Assembly (NCBI GenBank): GCA_011046145.1
Contig: DSBA01000020.1
Location: 1 to 37,607 of the forward strand
Origin: Candidatus Uhrbacteria bacterium
GTDB taxonomy: Bacteria; Patescibacteriota; Patescibacteriia; CAIXNZ01
Reading direction: 5' to 3'
Length of the DNA stretch: 37,607 nucleotides
Shown: piece by piece, positions 5,307 to 37,560 of the stretch
Layout: every line of letters starts with the position of its first letter
Position numbering within the stretch: the first letter of the stretch is position 1
Translations under genes and position numbers: made by a program
Notes under the pieces: model-generated
Seen by the model: the letters and a program-made list of their open reading frames with translations, nothing else
Told to the model about the DNA's origin: nothing
The model's database searches: none

Positions 5307-6590
5307 ATGGGTTTGGTTATGATTTTTAAAGGCCAATTTAAAAAAGAAGATAGTTTTCCCCTAAAAGTTTTAATTTTGTCTGTTATTTTAAGTTTGATTT
5401 TCGGCGGAGTGGCCGGTGTTGGCGCAAGTTTTTTGTTTATGCAAAATTTAGACAAGCTGGGTTTTATTACCAGCAATAAAGAAGGGTGGCAATTGCAAAA
5501 AATAGAGACAGAAAAAATTTCTTTGATTGAAGAAGAATCAGCGACAATTGACGTGGTAAAAAAAACCAGCCCTTCTGTGGTAAGCATAATCATTTCTAAG
5601 CAGTTAAAGGATATTTACAGTTCAACAGACCCTAATATTTTTGATGATCCGTTTTTTGAATTTGGCTGGCCTTTTAATTATAGGTTTAATCAGCCAGATC
5701 TGACTCCTGAAGAAGGTTTGCAAAAAAAGCAGGTCGGAGGCGGCACAGGCTTTATTATTTCAGAAGACGGCTTGATTTTGACTAATAAACACGTGGTTTC
5801 AGATGAAAAAGCAGAATATACAGTAATAACTTATGACGGTCAAAAATATGAGGCGGAAGTTTTAGCCAAAGACCCGATTAATGACCTGGCAGTTATTAAG
5901 ATTGCAGCAAGTGATTTAAAGCCTTTGCTATTGGGAGATTCAGACCAAATTCAAATCGGCCAGACAGTTATTGCCATTGGCAATACCCTTTCAGAATTTA
6001 GCAATACTGTTACCAGGGGTGTGATCAGCGGTATTGGGCGCAGAATTGAAGCTGGCGGGTATGGTTTTAGCGAGGTTTTAGAGGAGGCAATCCAGACAGA
6101 CGCGGCTATTAATCCAGGCAATTCCGGCGGACCGCTTTTAAATTTAAAGGGCGAAGCCATTGGCATTAATACTGCGATTTCCCGTTCGGGCCAATTAGTT
6201 GGTTTTGCTATTCCTATAAACGAAGCTAAGCAGGTCATAGAAAGCATTCAAAAGTATGGCAGAATTGTAAGGCCGTTTTTAGGCGTGCGCTATATGATTA
6301 TTAATAAGCAAGTTGCTGAGGTTAATAAATTAGATGTTGATTATGGAGCTTTGATAATTAAAGGCAGCAAGCCTGAAGATTTGGCTATTGTGCCTGGTTC
6401 GCCGGCTGACAAGGCAGGTTTGGTTGAAAATGATATTATTCTAGAAGTTAATGGCCGGAAAATAAATGAAAACAATTCATTGGCCAGAATTTTGGCGCGT
6501 TATGCTCCGGGAGACGAGGTTGAATTAAAAATTTTGCATAAGGGAGAGGAAAAAATAGTCAAAGCTATTTTGTCAGAAAGGGATGAGTAA
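5307..6590 (+). CDS. htrA: HtrA/DegP-family serine protease with one PDZ domain
   Basis: The catalytic triad contexts TNKHVV, NDLAVIK and GNSGGPL are present. It also has an N-terminal membrane anchor and a C-terminal PDZ (GSPADKAGL). An alternative start is at 5319. Confidence 0.88.
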   Translation: MGLVMIFKGQFKKEDSFPLKVLILSVILSLIFGGVAGVGASFLFMQNLDKLGFITSNKEGWQLQKIETEKISLIEEESATIDVVKKTSPSVVSIIISKQLKDIYSSTDPNIFDDPFFEFGWPFNYRFNQPDLTPEEGLQKKQVGGGTGFIISEDGLILTNKHVVSDEKAEYTVITYDGQKYEAEVLAKDPINDLAVIKIAASDLKPLLLGDSDQIQIGQTVIAIGNTLSEFSNTVTRGVISGIGRRIEAGGYGFSEVLEEAIQTDAAINPGNSGGPLLNLKGEAIGINTAISRSGQLVGFAIPINEAKQVIESIQKYGRIVRPFLGVRYMIINKQVAEVNKLDVDYGALIIKGSKPEDLAIVPGSPADKAGLVENDIILEVNGRKINENNSLARILARYAPGDEVELKILHKGEEKIVKAILSERDE

Positions 6591-6624: not shown

Positions 6625-6660
6625 AACAGCAGGCTGGATGAGCCTGTTGTTTTATTTTTT
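6625..6660 (+). terminator. Intrinsic terminator after htrA
   Basis: The stem AACAGCAGGCT (6625-6635) pairs with AGCCTGTTGTT (6641-6651), with a 5-nt loop and a following T-rich run. Confidence 0.65.
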
Positions 6661-6699
6661 AAGCTGGTAAAATTTTTAATTTTTTGATAAAATTAATCT

Positions 6700-8550: not shown

Positions 8551-10187
8551 TGTCTTTAAAAACTTTAAAAACTAAAAAAGAATTAAAATGGTCGGCTAAT
8601 GACATTGTTTATCAAATTTATCCCCGCAGTTTTAAAGATACAACAGGCAATGGCATTGGTGATTTGCAGGGAATTATTGAAAAATTAGATTATTTGCACA
8701 AAATTTTAAAAGTTGATGCTATTTGGCTGTGTCCGATATACAAATCGCCGATGAAAGATTTTGGCTATGATATAGCTGATTATTGCCAAATTGATCCTCT
8801 ATTTGGCAATTTTAAACTTTTTGATAATTTAGTTAAAAAAGCCCATGGGCGCGGCCTGAAAATTTTAATGGATTTTGTGCCTAATCATACTTCTGACCAG
8901 CACCCTTGGTTTATTGAGTCTCGCTCTGCTTTAAAAAATCCTAAGCGGGATTGGTATATTTGGCAGAAGCCAAAACCAGATGGTTCCCCGCCTAATAATT
9001 GGCTAAGCAGGTTTGGCGGTTCTGCCTGGACATTTGATCCCAAAACAAAACAGTATTATTTACATTCTTTTTTGCCTTGCCAGCCAGATCTTAATTGGCG
9101 CAACCCTCAAGTGCAAAAAGAAATGAGAAAAATTTTAGAATTTTGGCTGGTCAAAGGAGTTGATGGCTTTCGTTTGGATGCCCTTTACCATATTATAAAA
9201 GATGATAAATTTCGCGATAATCCAATAAATCCAAGGTATATTCCTGGCCATGACGATCCTTACCGCCAATTTTTAAACGTATATGACAGGGGCAGGCCAG
9301 CCACCTTGGAAATTTTAAATAAATTTTGCGGCGTTATTGGCCAGCATAAGAATAAATTCTTGGTTAGCGAAGTTTTTTATCAGACCAAGGTTGCTGAACT
9401 AAAAACCTATTATAAGCTTTGCCAAGCTGGTTTGCACGCGCCTTTTAATTTTAATTTTATAAGGTTGCCATGGAGCGCTTGGGCTTATCGCAGTTTTTTG
9501 GATAATTATGAAGAAAATTTGAGTGAAGGAGACTGCCCTAATTATGTTTTAGGCAATCATGATCGCTCCCGAGTCGCTTCCCGCTTGGAAAGCAGAAAAA
9601 AGGCCAGGTTGCTTGCGATGTTAGTTTTTACTTTAAAAGGCATGCCTTTTATATATTATGGAGAAGAAATTGGCATGTCCAATGTGCCAGTAAAAAATAA
9701 TGAACAATTAGATCCTTGGGGGAAAAATGTTCCTGGTTTTGGCTTGGGCCGCGACGCCTATCGTACGCCCATGCAATGGTCGGCCCAGAAATACGCGGGT
9801 TTTTCCAAAACAAAGCCATGGCTGCCTGTCGCTAGAAATTATTTATTTTTTAATGTTAAAAAAGAATTAGCGGATAAAAAATCATTTTTAAGCCTTTATA
9901 GAAATTTGATTAGCTTTAGAAAAAAATCAAAAGCTATTTTAGAGGGTAATTATTACCCTTTGAATATCCGTTCCCAAAATGTTTTTGCTTATGTCAGAGA
10001 ATCAGAAACTGAAAAAGTTTTAGTTTTATTAAATTTCGCTTCTAAGACGCAAAAAATTTCCTTGCCTTTTGCTATGGCGGAATTAGTCTGCAATACTTTT
10101 TTATCCAGGAAAAAGGGTCAAAAAATCAATCTTAACAAGCTTTATTTAAAAGCTTTTGAAGGATATTTATTTAAGCTTAAAAAATAA
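8550..10187 (+). CDS. GH13 alpha-glucosidase / oligo-1,6-glucosidase-like
   Basis: It has IYQIYPRSFKD..GDLQGI, DFVPNHTS, GVDGFRLDA (nucleophile), SEVF and LGNHD. The start overlaps the upstream stop (TAATG at 8548-8552). Confidence 0.85.
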   Translation: MSLKTLKTKKELKWSANDIVYQIYPRSFKDTTGNGIGDLQGIIEKLDYLHKILKVDAIWLCPIYKSPMKDFGYDIADYCQIDPLFGNFKLFDNLVKKAHGRGLKILMDFVPNHTSDQHPWFIESRSALKNPKRDWYIWQKPKPDGSPPNNWLSRFGGSAWTFDPKTKQYYLHSFLPCQPDLNWRNPQVQKEMRKILEFWLVKGVDGFRLDALYHIIKDDKFRDNPINPRYIPGHDDPYRQFLNVYDRGRPATLEILNKFCGVIGQHKNKFLVSEVFYQTKVAELKTYYKLCQAGLHAPFNFNFIRLPWSAWAYRSFLDNYEENLSEGDCPNYVLGNHDRSRVASRLESRKKARLLAMLVFTLKGMPFIYYGEEIGMSNVPVKNNEQLDPWGKNVPGFGLGRDAYRTPMQWSAQKYAGFSKTKPWLPVARNYLFFNVKKELADKKSFLSLYRNLISFRKKSKAILEGNYYPLNIRSQNVFAYVRESETEKVLVLLNFASKTQKISLPFAMAELVCNTFLSRKKGQKINLNKLYLKAFEGYLFKLKK

Positions 10188-10193
10188 ATTTTT

Positions 10194-11015
10194 ATGTATC
10201 TGCTTTTTGATATTGGCGGCAGCAAAACTCGTTTGGCTGTGTCAAAAGACAAGAAAAATTTATCCCAAGTGGAAATTGTTCCTACCCCGCAAGATTTTAA
10301 AAAAGGCATTAAGTTTTTGGTTGATTCGGGCAAAAGGATAACAGGAGGCAAAAAAATTAAAATGGTTGCCGGAGGCATAGCAGGGCCGTTAAATAAAAAC
10401 AAGACCAAATTGGCAAATTCGCCTAATTTGCCTCAATGGGCAAACCAGCCCTTATTTTCTTTGTTAAAAAAAGAATTCAAATCTCCGGTTTTTTTGGAAA
10501 ATGACGCTGCTTTAGCCGGCTTAGGCGAAGTTTATTATGGCGCTGGAAAAGGCGGTAAAATTGTTGCTTATTTAACTATTAGTACAGGAGTTGGCGGCGC
10601 TAGGCTGGTTGAGGGACAAATTGATCAGAATTATTTCGGTTTTGAACCGGGACAACAAATTATTAATTATGACGCTTTAATTAATTTTCAGACACTTGAA
10701 GCAAATATTTCAGGCACGGGCTTGTTTAAAAAATACAAAAAGCCAGCCGCTGAATTGTCAGCCAAAAAAATTTGGGAAAGAGAGGCTAAATTATTAGCAT
10801 ATGGTCTGAACAACATAACTGTTTTGTGGTCGCCGGAAATAATTATTTTAGGCGGGTCGGTTATGAAAAAAATTTCTTTAAAAGAAGTTAGAAAATACTT
10901 CAAACAAACATTAAAAATATTTCCTGGCTTGCCAAAGATCAAAAGATCAAAATTGGGCGATTTGTCAGGAATTTATGGCGCTTTGGCAATTTTAAACACA
11001 AAAAATAAACGCTAA
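10194..11015 (+). CDS. ROK-family sugar kinase (glucokinase-like)
   Basis: It has the LFDIGGSKTRLAV phosphate-1 motif, ENDAALAGLGE and TISTGVGG. Confidence 0.75.
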   Translation: MYLLFDIGGSKTRLAVSKDKKNLSQVEIVPTPQDFKKGIKFLVDSGKRITGGKKIKMVAGGIAGPLNKNKTKLANSPNLPQWANQPLFSLLKKEFKSPVFLENDAALAGLGEVYYGAGKGGKIVAYLTISTGVGGARLVEGQIDQNYFGFEPGQQIINYDALINFQTLEANISGTGLFKKYKKPAAELSAKKIWEREAKLLAYGLNNITVLWSPEIIILGGSVMKKISLKEVRKYFKQTLKIFPGLPKIKRSKLGDLSGIYGALAILNTKNKR

Positions 11016-26761: not shown

Positions 26762-28708
26762 ATGGCATTGGAAATAACACCCAGCATAAAAGAAACCCAA
26801 AAGACAGAAGAGAAAATAACCCCGGCGCAACAAAAAGCTAAAGAAGCTGCGGCGCTAAAAGAAGAGGCAATTACTCTGGAAGAAGAAAAAATATACCGCA
26901 AAGGAGTTATTGACATAAAAGATTTAATCGCACCGGCGGCTTTTGAGGTCAAGCCAAGTTATCTGGTTTTAGGAGATACTTTTGTCAGGACGCTTTTTGT
27001 TTTGAATTATCCTCGTTATATAAGCATAGGTTGGTTTACGCCGATTGTAAATATGAGCAAGACTTTAGATGTGTCAATGTTTTTTTACCCGGTTAAGTCA
27101 GAAATTATTTTAAAACAGCTAAAAAAGAGAGTCGGGAATTTGCAGGCCCAGTTAATGTCTGATATTGAAAAAGGCGCTCCGCGCGATCCGATTTTAGAGA
27201 CTGCTTTGCGCGATATTGAACAGCTAAGGGACCAATTGACCCAAGGCATTGAAAAATTTTTCCAATTCGCTTTGTACGTGACTATTTATGCTGATAAGCT
27301 GGAAGAATTAGATAAAATGACTTCTGAAATAGAATCAATTTTTGGCGGCAAATTAATTTATACTAAAAAAGTTTTATACCAGGCAGAACAAGGCTTTAAA
27401 TCAACCCTGCCCTTGGGAATAGACGAATTATTGATTTCTTTTAATATGAATTCTTCCCCGGTGGCTTCTTCTTTTCCTTTTATTTCCTCTGAATTGACTT
27501 CTGATAATGGCATCTTATATGGCGTTAACCGGCACAATAATAGTTTGATAATTTTTGATCGTTTTTCTCTGCAGAATGCCAACTTTGTGGTTTTTGCCAC
27601 CTCCGGCGCAGGCAAAAGCTATACTATCAAACTGGAGGTTTTGAGAAGTTTAATGCTGGGAACAGATGTCATTATTATTGACCCTGAAAGAGAATATCTG
27701 CATTTAGCAGAAGCAGTTGGCGGCACTTATGTTGATATTTCTCTTTCTTCAAAAAACAAAATAAATCCTTTTGATTTGCCAAGGGCGATTGGCGACGCTT
27801 CAACTGAAGATATTATCCGCAGCGCGGTTATTACTTTGAAAGGCTTATTGCGCATAATGCTGGGCAAATTGACAGTAGAAGAAGATACTATTTTGGACAG
27901 GGCTTTAATTGAGACCTATGCCAGCAAAGATATTACGGCTGATTCAGATTTATCAACAATAGAGCCGCCTGTTATGCTGGATTTGCAGAATATTTTGGAA
28001 GGCATGGAAGGGGCTGGAAGCCTAGGCTTAAGATTAAGAAAATATACAGACGGAACTTTTTCAGGACTTTTCAACCGGCCGACTAATGTTGATGTTAAAA
28101 ACCAACTAGTTATCTTTTCCGTCAGAGATCTGGAGGACGAGTTGCGGCCGATAGCAATTTACACCATAGTCAATTATATTTGGAATGTTGTGCGTTCAGA
28201 AGTCAAGAAAAGGATTTTGGTAATTGACGAGGCCTGGTGGCTAATGACCCAAGAGGATTCAGCAAAATTTATTTACGCCTTAGTTAAAAGATGCAGGAAA
28301 TATTATTTAGGCGTGACGACAATTACCCAGGATGTCAATGACTTTTTAAACAATCCATACGGCAAAGCCATTGTCACAAATTCAGCGCTCCAAATGCTTT
28401 TGAAGCAATCGCCGGCGGCAATTGACAATATCCAGAAATTATTTCTTTTGACAGAAGGGGAAAAATATTTGCTTTTGGAAGGCGGGGTAGGTGAAGGCAT
28501 ATTTTTTGCCGGCAGAAAACATGCAGCGATTAAAGTGGTGGCTTCTTACAATGAAGACCAGTTAATTACCAGCGATCCAAGGCAGCTTTTGGAAATTGAA
28601 GCAGCCAAGCGTGAATTTGAAGAAGAAACTTCAGGAGAAGAAAATGAAGAGAGTGCCGGCCAAAGCGCGCCGCGCGCTTCTGAGGGGGTTGAAGAAATTG
28701 ATATATAA
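26762..28708 (+). CDS. VirB4-family T4SS ATPase
   Basis: It has Walker A VVFATSGAGKSYT (nt ~27596-27622) and Walker B RILVIDEAWWLM. The N-domain LGDTFVRTLFVLNYPRYISIGWF is typical of VirB4/PrgJ/TraE. Confidence 0.85.
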   Translation: MALEITPSIKETQKTEEKITPAQQKAKEAAALKEEAITLEEEKIYRKGVIDIKDLIAPAAFEVKPSYLVLGDTFVRTLFVLNYPRYISIGWFTPIVNMSKTLDVSMFFYPVKSEIILKQLKKRVGNLQAQLMSDIEKGAPRDPILETALRDIEQLRDQLTQGIEKFFQFALYVTIYADKLEELDKMTSEIESIFGGKLIYTKKVLYQAEQGFKSTLPLGIDELLISFNMNSSPVASSFPFISSELTSDNGILYGVNRHNNSLIIFDRFSLQNANFVVFATSGAGKSYTIKLEVLRSLMLGTDVIIIDPEREYLHLAEAVGGTYVDISLSSKNKINPFDLPRAIGDASTEDIIRSAVITLKGLLRIMLGKLTVEEDTILDRALIETYASKDITADSDLSTIEPPVMLDLQNILEGMEGAGSLGLRLRKYTDGTFSGLFNRPTNVDVKNQLVIFSVRDLEDELRPIAIYTIVNYIWNVVRSEVKKRILVIDEAWWLMTQEDSAKFIYALVKRCRKYYLGVTTITQDVNDFLNNPYGKAIVTNSALQMLLKQSPAAIDNIQKLFLLTEGEKYLLLEGGVGEGIFFAGRKHAAIKVVASYNEDQLITSDPRQLLEIEAAKREFEEETSGEENEESAGQSAPRASEGVEEIDI

Positions 28709-35042: not shown

Positions 35043-35546
35043 TTAACCTTCAGGGTAATCTATTTTAAAGATTGAATGATCGCCCAGTTCATAATTGCGC
35101 AGGGAGCAGTATTTATATTTTGCGATATTATCAGTTAGGCCGTGCTTGATAGGATTGTTATGAATGTAATCCAGTTTTTCCCAGAATTTTTTGTCAGTGT
35201 AGATATTAAAATCGTAAAATCCGGGCTGCCAAATGCGATATTTTAAATTCACCCGGTGGTTATGCGGGGTAGCGCAGAGCATCGGCTCTGCGCTGTCATT
35301 TCGCGCCAAGAGCAGATGCTCTTGGCTACCCAGATGTGTATATAAGTCAATAATTCGCCGCGCACTAGACCCTTTTATACTTTGCAGGATCCTGGAAATT
35401 GTAGAGACAGGGTATACCCTGTCTCTACGGAAAAAAAATTCTTCCAGCAAAATCAAACAGCATTTTTCGTCTTTAAAATAAGGGAATTTTTTAAATGTCC
35501 GAAAGGTCGCAAAATGTATATCGCCAGAAGAATTAAATTTTTTCAT
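35043..35546 (-). CDS. RAYT/IS200-like Y1 transposase homologue, copy A: catalytic-Tyr region present, HUH region replaced by a palindrome (probably inactive alone)
   Basis: It has the N-terminus GDIHFATFRTFKKFPYF, the helix ISRILQSIKGSSARRI, IWQPGFYDFNI and the Tyr motif LDYIHNNPIKHGL. No H-U-H motif is present. Two GC-rich palindromic inserts are read through in frame. Confidence 0.6.
   Translation of the reverse strand: MKKFNSSGDIHFATFRTFKKFPYFKDEKCCLILLEEFFFRRDRVYPVSTISRILQSIKGSSARRIIDLYTHLGSQEHLLLARNDSAEPMLCATPHNHRVNLKYRIWQPGFYDFNIYTDKKFWEKLDYIHNNPIKHGLTDNIAKYKYCSLRNYELGDHSIFKIDYPEG
35267..35331. repeat. REPIN/BIME-like doublet inside copy A: GGGTA-hairpin-linker-hairpin-TACCC
   Basis: The element reads GGGTA GCGCAGAGC ATCG GCTCTGCGC TGTCATTTCGC GCCAAGAGC AGAT GCTCTTGGC TACCC. 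Each strand presents a 5' GTAG followed by a 9-bp hairpin. Confidence 0.7.
35401..35428. repeat. Perfect 28-bp palindrome at the position where the HUH segment should be
   Basis: GTAGAGACAGGGTA|TACCCTGTCTCTAC has GTAG...CTAC termini and the same GGGTA/TACCC core as the doublets. Confidence 0.8.
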
Positions 35547-35568
35547 GTTTTTTATTTTTATTTCAATT

Positions 35569-35615
35569 GCCCTCTCGGGCAGGCAGGGCTTTTATGCCTT
35601 GCCGCGTCCTTTCTC
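35569..35615. repeat. 47-nt repeat R1 (imperfect hairpin with CTTTTATG loop)
   Basis: It matches R2 (35771-35817) at 41 of 47 positions by my manual alignment. The hairpin is GGCAGGG-CTTTTATG-CCTTGCC with a bulge. Confidence 0.7.
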
Positions 35616-35770
35616 CCGCCGAAGCATAAAAGTTTCGTCTATCCCAATGGGAAAAAATATATTTTAAACCCAATGTGGTTCATGGGGGGGTGATAATTGT
35701 CCCCTCAAACCCTGTTTCCACCTCCTTAGACAAGGAGCAGATCTTTTATGCTTTGCCACGAAAATTCTTC

Positions 35771-35817
35771 GCCCGCTCGGGTAGGCAAGGCTTTTATGAC
35801 CTGCCGCGTCCCTTCTC
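35771..35817. repeat. 47-nt repeat R2 (GGGTAG + imperfect hairpin with CTTTTATG loop)
   Basis: It reads GCCCGCTCGGGTAGGCAAGGCTTTTATGACCTGCCGCGTCCCTTCTC and lies within the 3' end of copy B. Confidence 0.7.
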
Positions 35818-35874
35818 TTTCTCTTGAACTCACGCCTTTTATTTTTTTAACTATATGCGAAATATCCTCCCTTT

Positions 35875-35934
35875 GGGTAGCGACGAATTCATTCGTCGCT
35901 GGATTTTGCGCCGCGAATGAATTCGCGGCTACCC
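35875..35934. repeat. REPIN/BIME-like doublet inside copy B
   Basis: It reads GGGTA GCGACGAAT TC ATTCGTCGC TGGATTTTGC GCCGCGAAT GA ATTCGCGGC TACCC. The architecture, termini and linker match 35267-35331, but the stem sequences differ. Confidence 0.7.
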
Positions 35935-36139
35935 GCGGTTGGATTAACAGATGGAGATGATCAACGATTATGCAAAAACCTAAAATTTTAAATTTTAATT
36001 CATTTCTTAATTTATCTAAGATACTTAAAAATAGTTCATAACAACTTTCATTCTTAAAAAATGGGAATTTTTTAAATGTCCGAAAGGTCACAAAATGTAT
36101 ATCGCCAGGAGAATTAAATTTCTGCATTATAATCTTTTA

Positions 36140-37471: not shown

Positions 37472-37513
37472 ATTAATTTATATTAAATTATCAGGATTAT
37501 TTCTGTCATTTTC

Positions 37514-37560
37514 CCAACCTTCGTTGGCCAAAGCCAACTTCGGCCTTCGCCGACCGAAGT
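37514..37560. repeat. Cluster of GC-rich CTTCG-type hairpins upstream of radA
   Basis: The hairpins are CCAAC-CTTC-GTTGG (37514-37527), the alternative TTGGC-CAAA-GCCAA (37524-37537) and ACTTCGG-N10-CCGAAGT (37537-37560). Confidence 0.5.

Follow-up and report, generated by a model that had tools for sequence, protein, structure and literature searches.

The locus discussed here raises the question of why perfect DNA hairpins should lie inside the reading frames of transposase-like genes and be translated with them. It occupies positions 35043–36127 of a 37.6-kb stretch of DNA from a Candidatus Uhrbacteria bacterium (contig DSBA01000020.1, positions 1–37,607), hereafter the window, and consists of two minus-strand open reading frames (ORFs), ORF1 and ORF2, related to the REP-associated tyrosine transposases (RAYTs), where REP stands for repetitive extragenic palindrome. 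Three hairpin-forming elements lie within them, namely two doublets, A and B, and a third element that is a single palindrome. It is likely that these are REPs, or the paired REPs known as REPINs (REP doublets forming hairpins), of the RAYT itself (TnpA_REP, HUH-Y1), which are found both within the gene and next to it, and whose extra in-frame peptide is tolerated.

Element A (35267–35331) reads GGGTA GCGCAGAGC ATCG GCTCTGCGC TGTCATTTCGC GCCAAGAGC AGAT GCTCTTGGC TACCC, and element B (35875–35934) reads GGGTA GCGACGAAT TC ATTCGTCGC TGGATTTTGC GCCGCGAAT GA ATTCGCGGC TACCC. Both consist of GGGTAG, a perfect hairpin of 9–10 bp, a linker, an inverted hairpin and CTACCC, which agrees with the GGGTA-hairpin-linker-hairpin-TACCC architecture given in the initial annotation. 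A repeat search of the window returned each of them as an inverted repeat of 21–23 nt, 87–90% complementary, with a spacer of 18–19 nt, and each doublet therefore represents two inverted copies of one GGGTAG-hairpin unit. The units of element A are located at 35267–35293 on the plus strand and 35305–35331 on the minus strand, and those of element B at 35875–35899 (plus) and 35910–35934 (minus); in all four, GGGTAG is followed by a hairpin, each on its own strand. Sequence and inverted-repeat search thus both bear out the earlier description of inverted doublets resembling REPINs or bacterial interspersed mosaic elements (BIMEs), with GTAG and a hairpin on each strand. The third element (35401–35428) is, as had been noted, a perfect palindrome of 28 nt (14 + 14), GTAGAGACAGGGTA followed directly by TACCCTGTCTCTAC, with GTAG at both feet, that is, a "double-foot" REP. 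GGGTAGC occurs five times in the window, and four of these occurrences lie in A, B or the palindrome. Translation confirms the in-frame peptides first quoted. Element A encodes GSQEHLLLARNDSAEPMLCAT, in the alphaC-beta4 loop of ORF1; element B encodes VAANSFAAQNPATNEFVAT, in the beta3(HUH)-alphaC loop of ORF2; and the third element encodes RDRVYPVST, in ORF1 at the point where the HUH-containing segment is gone.

The window has a GC content of 37%. It contains five perfect hairpins whose stems reach 9 bp or more and a stem GC of 0.5 or more, and all five fall within 35271–35929; in 60 dinucleotide shuffles of the whole window, the same class of hairpin was found 0.4 times on average and at most three times. 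When they are folded as single-stranded DNA, the z-scores of A and B lie between −4.6 and −5.4 for either strand and that of the palindrome is −7.75, and none of 200 shuffles folds as well as A, B or the palindrome. For the doublets, the long REPIN-type hairpin and the form with two small hairpins are nearly isoenergetic. Elsewhere in the window, the sole further GC-rich perfect hairpin is AAGCGCGC-C-GCGCGCTT (28663–28679), which has an 8-bp stem without a GTAG foot and is located near the 3′ end of a 648-residue plus-strand ORF (26762–28708).

The association of foot and hairpin extends beyond the window. In 106 RAYT-like ORFs, 37 of the 53 occurrences of GGGTAG directly precede a perfect hairpin of at least 7 bp, compared with 4 of 318 random positions from the same ORFs, in a count made with no pre-selection for hairpins. 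Among 23 distinct units of 27 nt, GGGTAG is invariant and 99.5% of the cells are paired, a percentage that is biased because the set was selected for having a stem, which does not bias the diversity of pair types. Eight of the nine pairs have changed on both sides among these units, and the view that the stems differ while staying paired, as expected from selection on structure, is thereby upheld. Covariation scored 0.842, compared with 0.239 in shuffles, none of the 500 reaching the observed value, and with about 0.12 in slid controls; G-T cells (G-U in RNA) number only 3 of 207, all at the first pair. Since pairing is almost exclusively Watson–Crick and each strand has its own GTAG foot, the structure appears to be needed in DNA on both strands and not in the sense RNA.

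The position of the elements in the protein was compared among homologues. Forty-six relatives of ORF1 were found in Parcubacteria, Buchananbacteria, Dehalococcoidia and metagenome bins; the full-length ones have 180–220 residues, and P0002, P0050, P0019 and P0037 pass the RAYT profile NF047646 (NCBIfam "REP-associated tyrosine transposase", curated cut-off 80 bits) at 99–108 bits. In the alignment, all close relatives of ORF1 have extra residues at the site of element A, between alphaC (IKGxSARxII) and WQPGFYDF, for instance GSQEHLLLARNDSAEQMLCAT, GSREPLLSARIPGTEQGLRAT and GSRSFYASAGHNLRQGIKALP, and the number of units varies from one in some relatives to several in others. Similarly, the ORF2 relatives P0049, P0050 and L015 have VAANSFAAQ..ATNEFVAT at the site of element B, right after the HUH strand, and share a similar DNA doublet as well as the peptide; at the alphaC-beta4 site, the loop of P0050 and L015 is short. 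Locus DNA was retrieved by protein similarity for about 20 loci, and the alphaC-beta4 DNA of Patescibacteria, Dehalococcoidia, Buchananbacteria and other Chloroflexota has the form GGGTAG-hairpin-linker-hairpin-CTACCC, with partial or single-hairpin versions in Stahlbacteria and Cloacimonadota, and with the doublet at the beta3-alphaC site in L015. The stems at the alphaC-beta4 site differ from locus to locus (GGTCGGAGC/GCTCCGACC, ACGAGGTC/GACCTCGT, GGCAAGGC/GCCTTGCC), and within a doublet the loops of the two hairpins are reverse complements of each other. Relatives with the same peptides but lacking palindromic DNA, which would have spoken against the initial reading, were thus not what was found: the homologues carry the palindromic DNA too. 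Because both positions are common to homologues from other organisms, A and B are regarded as inherited features of two RAYT sub-lineages, and fresh insertion events in the window are ruled out; of the earlier statement that hairpins had been "inserted" into the ORFs, the in-frame location stands.

Several further arrangements were observed at these sites. The Buchananbacteria RAYT homologue in L008, a 253-residue ORF, has at least five tandem in-frame GGGTAG-hairpin units (6280–6528, ..RQEQRLLSTHHEGSSEPPLRDG.. repeated) and REP units at both ends of the gene. The distant homologues at the Acidobacteriota loci L071, L072, L076, L078 and L079 have at the alphaC-beta4 site a single perfect hairpin of 8–12 bp that encloses a 7-nt loop and lacks the GGGTAG foot, such as CCCATGTCTCGC-AAAAACG-GCGAGACATGGG and CCCACTCATCGC-GTCCTTT-GCGATGAGTGGG. 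In L015, the beta3-alphaC doublet (6195–6243) is identically repeated 447 nt downstream (6642–6690), outside the called ORF, where it may belong to a second truncated gene copy.

The structural consequence of such an insert can be seen in a predicted model of P0002. An AlphaFold model built from a 44-sequence alignment has the expected Y1 fold (mean predicted local distance difference test score, pLDDT, 84; predicted template modelling score, pTM, 0.80), and its top match in the PDB is 4ER8, E. coli TnpA_REP bound to REP (E = 1.8e-8; template modelling score, TM, 0.65/0.73), which by sequence, too, ranks first among the solved structures (E = 2.6e-7). The REP-encoded residues 100–122, between alphaC (71–92) and beta4 (127–136), have pLDDT values below 50, and the encoded peptide is modelled as a disordered surface loop. 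A conserved protein domain was considered for the insert and rejected: the peptide is hypervariable, its pLDDT is below 50, and it is the DNA that covaries.

The genes of the window itself are no longer complete. ORF1 (35043–35546, minus strand, 167 residues) matches positions 71–146 of NF047646 with 59.8 bits, and ORF2 (35726–36127, minus strand, 133 residues) matches positions 4–68 with 44.4 bits; the two stand in tandem and match complementary halves of the profile, each below the cut-off. ORF1 keeps alphaC (ISRILQSIKG), WQPGFYDF and the tyrosine motif YIHNNP but has no HUH motif; compared with full-length homologues, about 30 residues including the HUH strand are gone, and the 28-nt palindrome lies exactly at the junction. 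ORF2 is the N-terminal RAYT half of a second sub-lineage, with alphaC and the HUH motif DHLH but without the W and Y motifs, and decayed hairpin units stand in place of its C-terminal half. The WQ and YIHNNP motifs are common to ORF1 and the homologues, and the HUH motif is DHVH in most homologues and NHIH in L015. A complete RAYT core, with HUH, W and Y...NP and a score above the cut-off, is found in neither window ORF; the initial naming of the hosts as RAYT ORFs is thus right about the family and overlooked that both are fragments. The system in the window is a decaying remnant made of two tandem paralogous RAYT fragments.

The decay involves hairpin units of another kind. A decayed "type 2" doublet (35566–35640, minus strand) lies out of frame (..FYASAGERTRQGIKALPAREG) and resembles the GSRSFYASAG..RQGIKALP inserts of P0019–P0021, and two or three further decayed type-2 units (35737–35823, minus strand; GGGTAGGCAAGGCTTTTATGACCTGCC and others) form the aberrant 3′ end of ORF2 (..RQVIKALPTRAGEEFSWQSIKDLLLV*). 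These TTTTAT-loop remnants were rejected as intact hairpins, as they fold no better than shuffles. In addition, a direct repeat of 82 nt with 89% identity (35465–35546 and 36046–36127, minus strand) encodes the first 27 residues shared by the two ORFs. The two copies bound a segment of 581 bp that is missing in the sister strain. On the contig of that strain, L134 (97–99% identical), the 505 bp of inter-repeat sequence corresponding to window 35541–36045 are gone, and with them the body of ORF2, element B and the type-2 remnants, which leaves a single gene there. The locus is therefore structurally polymorphic and, since the breakpoints fall in the direct repeats, the difference represents a deletion or duplication polymorphism. 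A cooperating split enzyme formed by ORF2 and ORF1 was considered, given that the active sites of Y1 transposases can be put together in trans; it is unlikely because each fragment lacks core strands and ORF2 is lost in the sister strain.

The third element has its own relatives. The palindrome with 13 nt on each side (35387–35440) recurs as a 54-nt block with 94% identity at L134:2499–2551. There it belongs to a third Y1/RAYT-like gene that looks intact, and it is read in frame as CRDRVYPVST within the beta3-alphaC loop. This gene (L134:2211–2783, 190 residues; NHLH, WQTNYYEHIIRDE and YIALNP) lies beyond radA; in L001 a similar gene, with GTAGAGACGCGATATATCGCGTCTCTAC, is present twice, and a palindrome-related copy is also present in L083. 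Most likely, ORF1 gained the 35387–35440 block and lost its HUH segment through a recombination that involved the palindromic REP. The window and the sister contig can be aligned only up to window position 37543, within a hairpin-rich stretch (37508–37560) of CCAAC-loop-GTTGG units, and, as the alignment ends there, the window strain may lack the third Y1 gene or be rearranged at that point.

Copies outside RAYT genes, for which the initial annotation had proposed a genome-wide search, exist in related contigs, and none lies in the window beyond the RAYT locus. A complete lack of further copies, which would have spoken against a mobile family, was therefore not what the related contigs showed. 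In L082, the locus of P0002 and thus of the closest full-length homologue, the same doublet, near-identical to element A, occurs both upstream of the start codon and inside the gene (9903–9965 and 10280–10342), the upstream one 36–98 nt from the gene, between pheS and the RAYT gene. L185 has an extragenic doublet in which both units equal the two units of element A, with 87% identity overall; L170 has an extragenic doublet upstream of a TrmB-like gene and L172 a single extragenic unit upstream of a ComM-like gene, and an intragenic location was rejected for these last two, both being upstream of start codons. Classical REPs flanking the RAYT gene are seen at several loci (L008, L019). Units have also entered another gene: in four low-GC metagenome contigs resembling those of the candidate phyla radiation (CPR), they lie in frame at one position of queA (L098:342, L112:4116, L141:490 and L159:7485; Pfam Queuosine_synth, E = 2e-122). 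The inserts add peptides such as MEQMLHST..GSQEPLLLA to the queA product, and the same queA genes have further variable segments downstream.

A pattern scan of metagenomes returned at least 119 stretches, dominated by a higher-GC REPIN family. Its doublet, GGGTAGCCTAGAGCATCYGCTCTAGGC-n4-ATTGGAGCNGATGCTCCAATCTACCC, is related to those described above and has more than 100 copies among the matches listed, in diverse, mostly intergenic contexts, on contigs L084–L201 with a GC content mostly about 0.5–0.55, and it probably derives from sediment Chloroflexota. The second unit of this dispersed doublet is the RAYT-internal unit of the Chloroflexota locus L009, and in L005 it sits at the 5′ edge of the RAYT ORF.

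By analogy with the TnpA_REP enzymes of E. coli, S. maltophilia and Marinomonas, a course of events can be proposed. On single-stranded DNA, a functional TnpA_REP would bind the hairpin in its folded form, recognise the GTAG foot, and cut and rejoin the DNA close by, by which REP units would be copied to new places. The presumed cognate REPs of this lineage occupy two surface loops, beta3-alphaC and alphaC-beta4, together with gene-adjacent sites; each RAYT sub-lineage would hold its own stem type, and the stems would stay paired because either strand of the substrate has to be able to fold. The units would thus be cleaved and mobilised by the RAYT, and the inserts would be functionally neutral for the protein. 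ORF1 has lost its HUH segment at the double-foot REP and ORF2 its tyrosine half among decayed REP units, and the 82-nt direct repeat already mediates the loss or gain of one fragment between strains.

Several points weigh against the elements being REPs tolerated in the gene of their own RAYT. Neither window ORF could be an active nuclease alone, and there is therefore no sign of current activity here; no GGGTAG-hairpin unit was found outside the RAYT locus in the 37.6-kb window or the read part of the sister contig. Two features depart from TnpA_REP subclass 2.4, the published class with which the lineage is compared below: the HUH motif is mostly DH[VL]H here, compared with NH[IFV]H in the subclass, and short 9-bp GGGTAG inverted doublets are missing from the manual REP table of that work. 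Lastly, hairpins at the same loop from Patescibacteria to Cloacimonadota, and single hairpins in Acidobacteria, could exceed what passive tolerance would leave.

This last point leads to the rival that survives best, although we think it rather unlikely: the alphaC-beta4 REPIN may be a conserved, co-evolving partner of the enzyme, retained from Patescibacteria to Chloroflexota and beyond as a functional cis element, either for autoregulation, with the enzyme binding or nicking its own gene or transcript, or as a heritable master copy that links specificities and re-founds REPINs. Such a role would suit the presence of GGGTAG hairpins with lineage-specific stems at the same loop in very distant lineages, the different REP type carried by each of the paralogues in contig L004, the match of internal copies to adjacent or dispersed ones (L082, and L009 and the gene edge in L005 against the dispersed family), and the stems that are still perfect in the defective window copies. 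It is less easily reconciled with the polymorphism of the alphaC-beta4 insert, which P0050 and L015 lack, of which a single palindrome is left in P0008, P0012 and P0015, and which has multiplied in L008, P0007 and P0010, or with identical units in unrelated places, such as queA and extragenic DNA, that have no such role.

A second rival dispenses with the RAYT and with structural selection altogether, the palindromes being made and kept by gene conversion among copies or, during replication, by template switching (quasi-palindrome correction). Perfect inverted repeats are well known to arise through template switching, and stems that are perfectly Watson–Crick, with almost no G-T pairs, and that survive intact in pseudogenes are what it would give; it leaves unexplained the invariant GGGTAG foot, the 70% versus 1% association of foot and hairpin inside RAYT genes, the fixed doublet geometry with its reverse-complementary loops and the identical units at unrelated loci, and we consider it very improbable. 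Least credible of all is a role in the mRNA, as RNase targets, translational pauses or attenuators limiting the transposase, with DNA palindromy as a by-product: all units are transcribed within ORFs, and other REPs are known to act on the stability of mRNA and on termination (Di Nocera et al. 2013), but RNA would tolerate G-U on the sense strand, where such pairs make up just 3 of the 207 cells and are confined to the first pair, both strands of the symmetric units bear a GTAG foot, the units occur in either orientation and in non-transcribed contexts, and no Rfam family matches, a permissive Rfam search, by which a known RNA family was rejected, having given a chance-level match only.

The reading of the elements as REPs and REPINs of their own RAYT can be set against known systems, and no new kind of system is revealed by the window. 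It has been reported by Quentin, Siguier, Chandler and Fichant (2018, BMC Genomics 19:475), in a classification of TnpA_Y1 proteins, that REPs are inserted in frame inside subclass 2.4 tnpA_REP genes, that the subclass 2.4 insertion is highly variable, built of short repeats and modelled as a peripheral extension, and that "double-foot" REPs (GT[AG]G...C[TC]AC) exist which possibly arose from an inverted dimer via central deletion. The intragenic placement, which had been taken as unusual, is therefore real but already described: in-frame REPs in RAYT genes are a published hallmark of TnpA_REP subclass 2.4 and not a new oddity. A search of later literature for work tying intragenic REPs in RAYT genes to the candidate phyla radiation found none. 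The window adds a lineage of that type to the RAYT genes that carry their own REPs in frame. What it documents is that hairpins lie at two fixed protein loops across very distant bacteria, that covariation maintains their pairing while the encoded peptide is disordered, and that in small, gene-dense genomes these units also find their way into other genes (queA). It thus offers a natural set of data on two questions: whether REPs inside genes act as regulators or are passengers, and how the specificities of RAYTs and REPs evolve together.

The likeness to subclass 2.4 (RAYT Group 4 of Bertels) includes REPs in frame between HuH and Y, a variable beta3-alphaC insertion, the WQ and YIxNNP motifs, a length of about 190 residues, REPs that also flank the gene, and 28-nt double-foot REPs of the form GTAGAGAC...GTCTCTAC. 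The third element has the double-foot pattern and fits the GTAGAGAC...GTCTCTAC entries of Table S1 in Quentin et al. (2018), where its class appears under subclass 2.4 as the 28-nt GTAGAGACAAGGCATGCCTTGTCTCTAC and GTAGAGACGCACGGCCGTGCGTCTCTAC. A second type of 28-nt double-foot palindrome, GTAGGGGC-N12-GCCCCTAC, was seen in the higher-GC contigs L105, L108, L115, L125, L151 and L184, and its foot is the most frequent in the published subclass 2.4 REP table. Apart from the two departures given above, the lineage differs from the subclass in that the dominant insertion site of the ORF1 lineage is alphaC-beta4 rather than beta3-alphaC, the hosts are Patescibacteria and Chloroflexota, compared with Cyanobacteria and Bacteroidetes, and the gene copies in the window are defective. 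Subclass 2.6, with YIH[QN]NP and a 21-residue alphaC-beta4 insertion, is a candidate class for the ORF1 lineage; compared by these features, the lineage may belong in 2.4, lie near 2.6 or represent an unsampled branch.

The REPINs of Pseudomonas fluorescens (Bertels and Rainey 2011) similarly consist of two inverted REPs with a short spacer that can fold together into a single long hairpin, and they accompany a RAYT present in one copy. Unlike the copies seen here, which are intragenic or few, they are extragenic and present in hundreds of copies; and here, because each REP arm is a perfect palindrome, folding into two small hairpins gives about the same stability as the long REPIN hairpin. 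With the REP/BIME system of E. coli and its TnpA_REP (4ER8), and with the REPtrons of S. maltophilia and Marinomonas, the lineage shares the GTAG foot 5′ of the hairpin, and its homologues share the fold and the W/Q, Y...NP and HUH motifs of those enzymes. E. coli REPs differ in being imperfect, with a bulge, and extragenic. It has been reported that TnpA_REPs with perfect-palindrome REPs recognise both the GTAG foot and the stem and process their cognate REPs (Corneloup et al. 2021). Lastly, the palindromic elements of Rickettsia are longer and have neither a GTAG foot nor a known cognate transposase; like them, and like the GTAG REPs described inside other genes (Di Nocera et al. 2013), the units of this lineage are small palindromic repeats that stay in frame and whose extra peptide is tolerated, as in queA.

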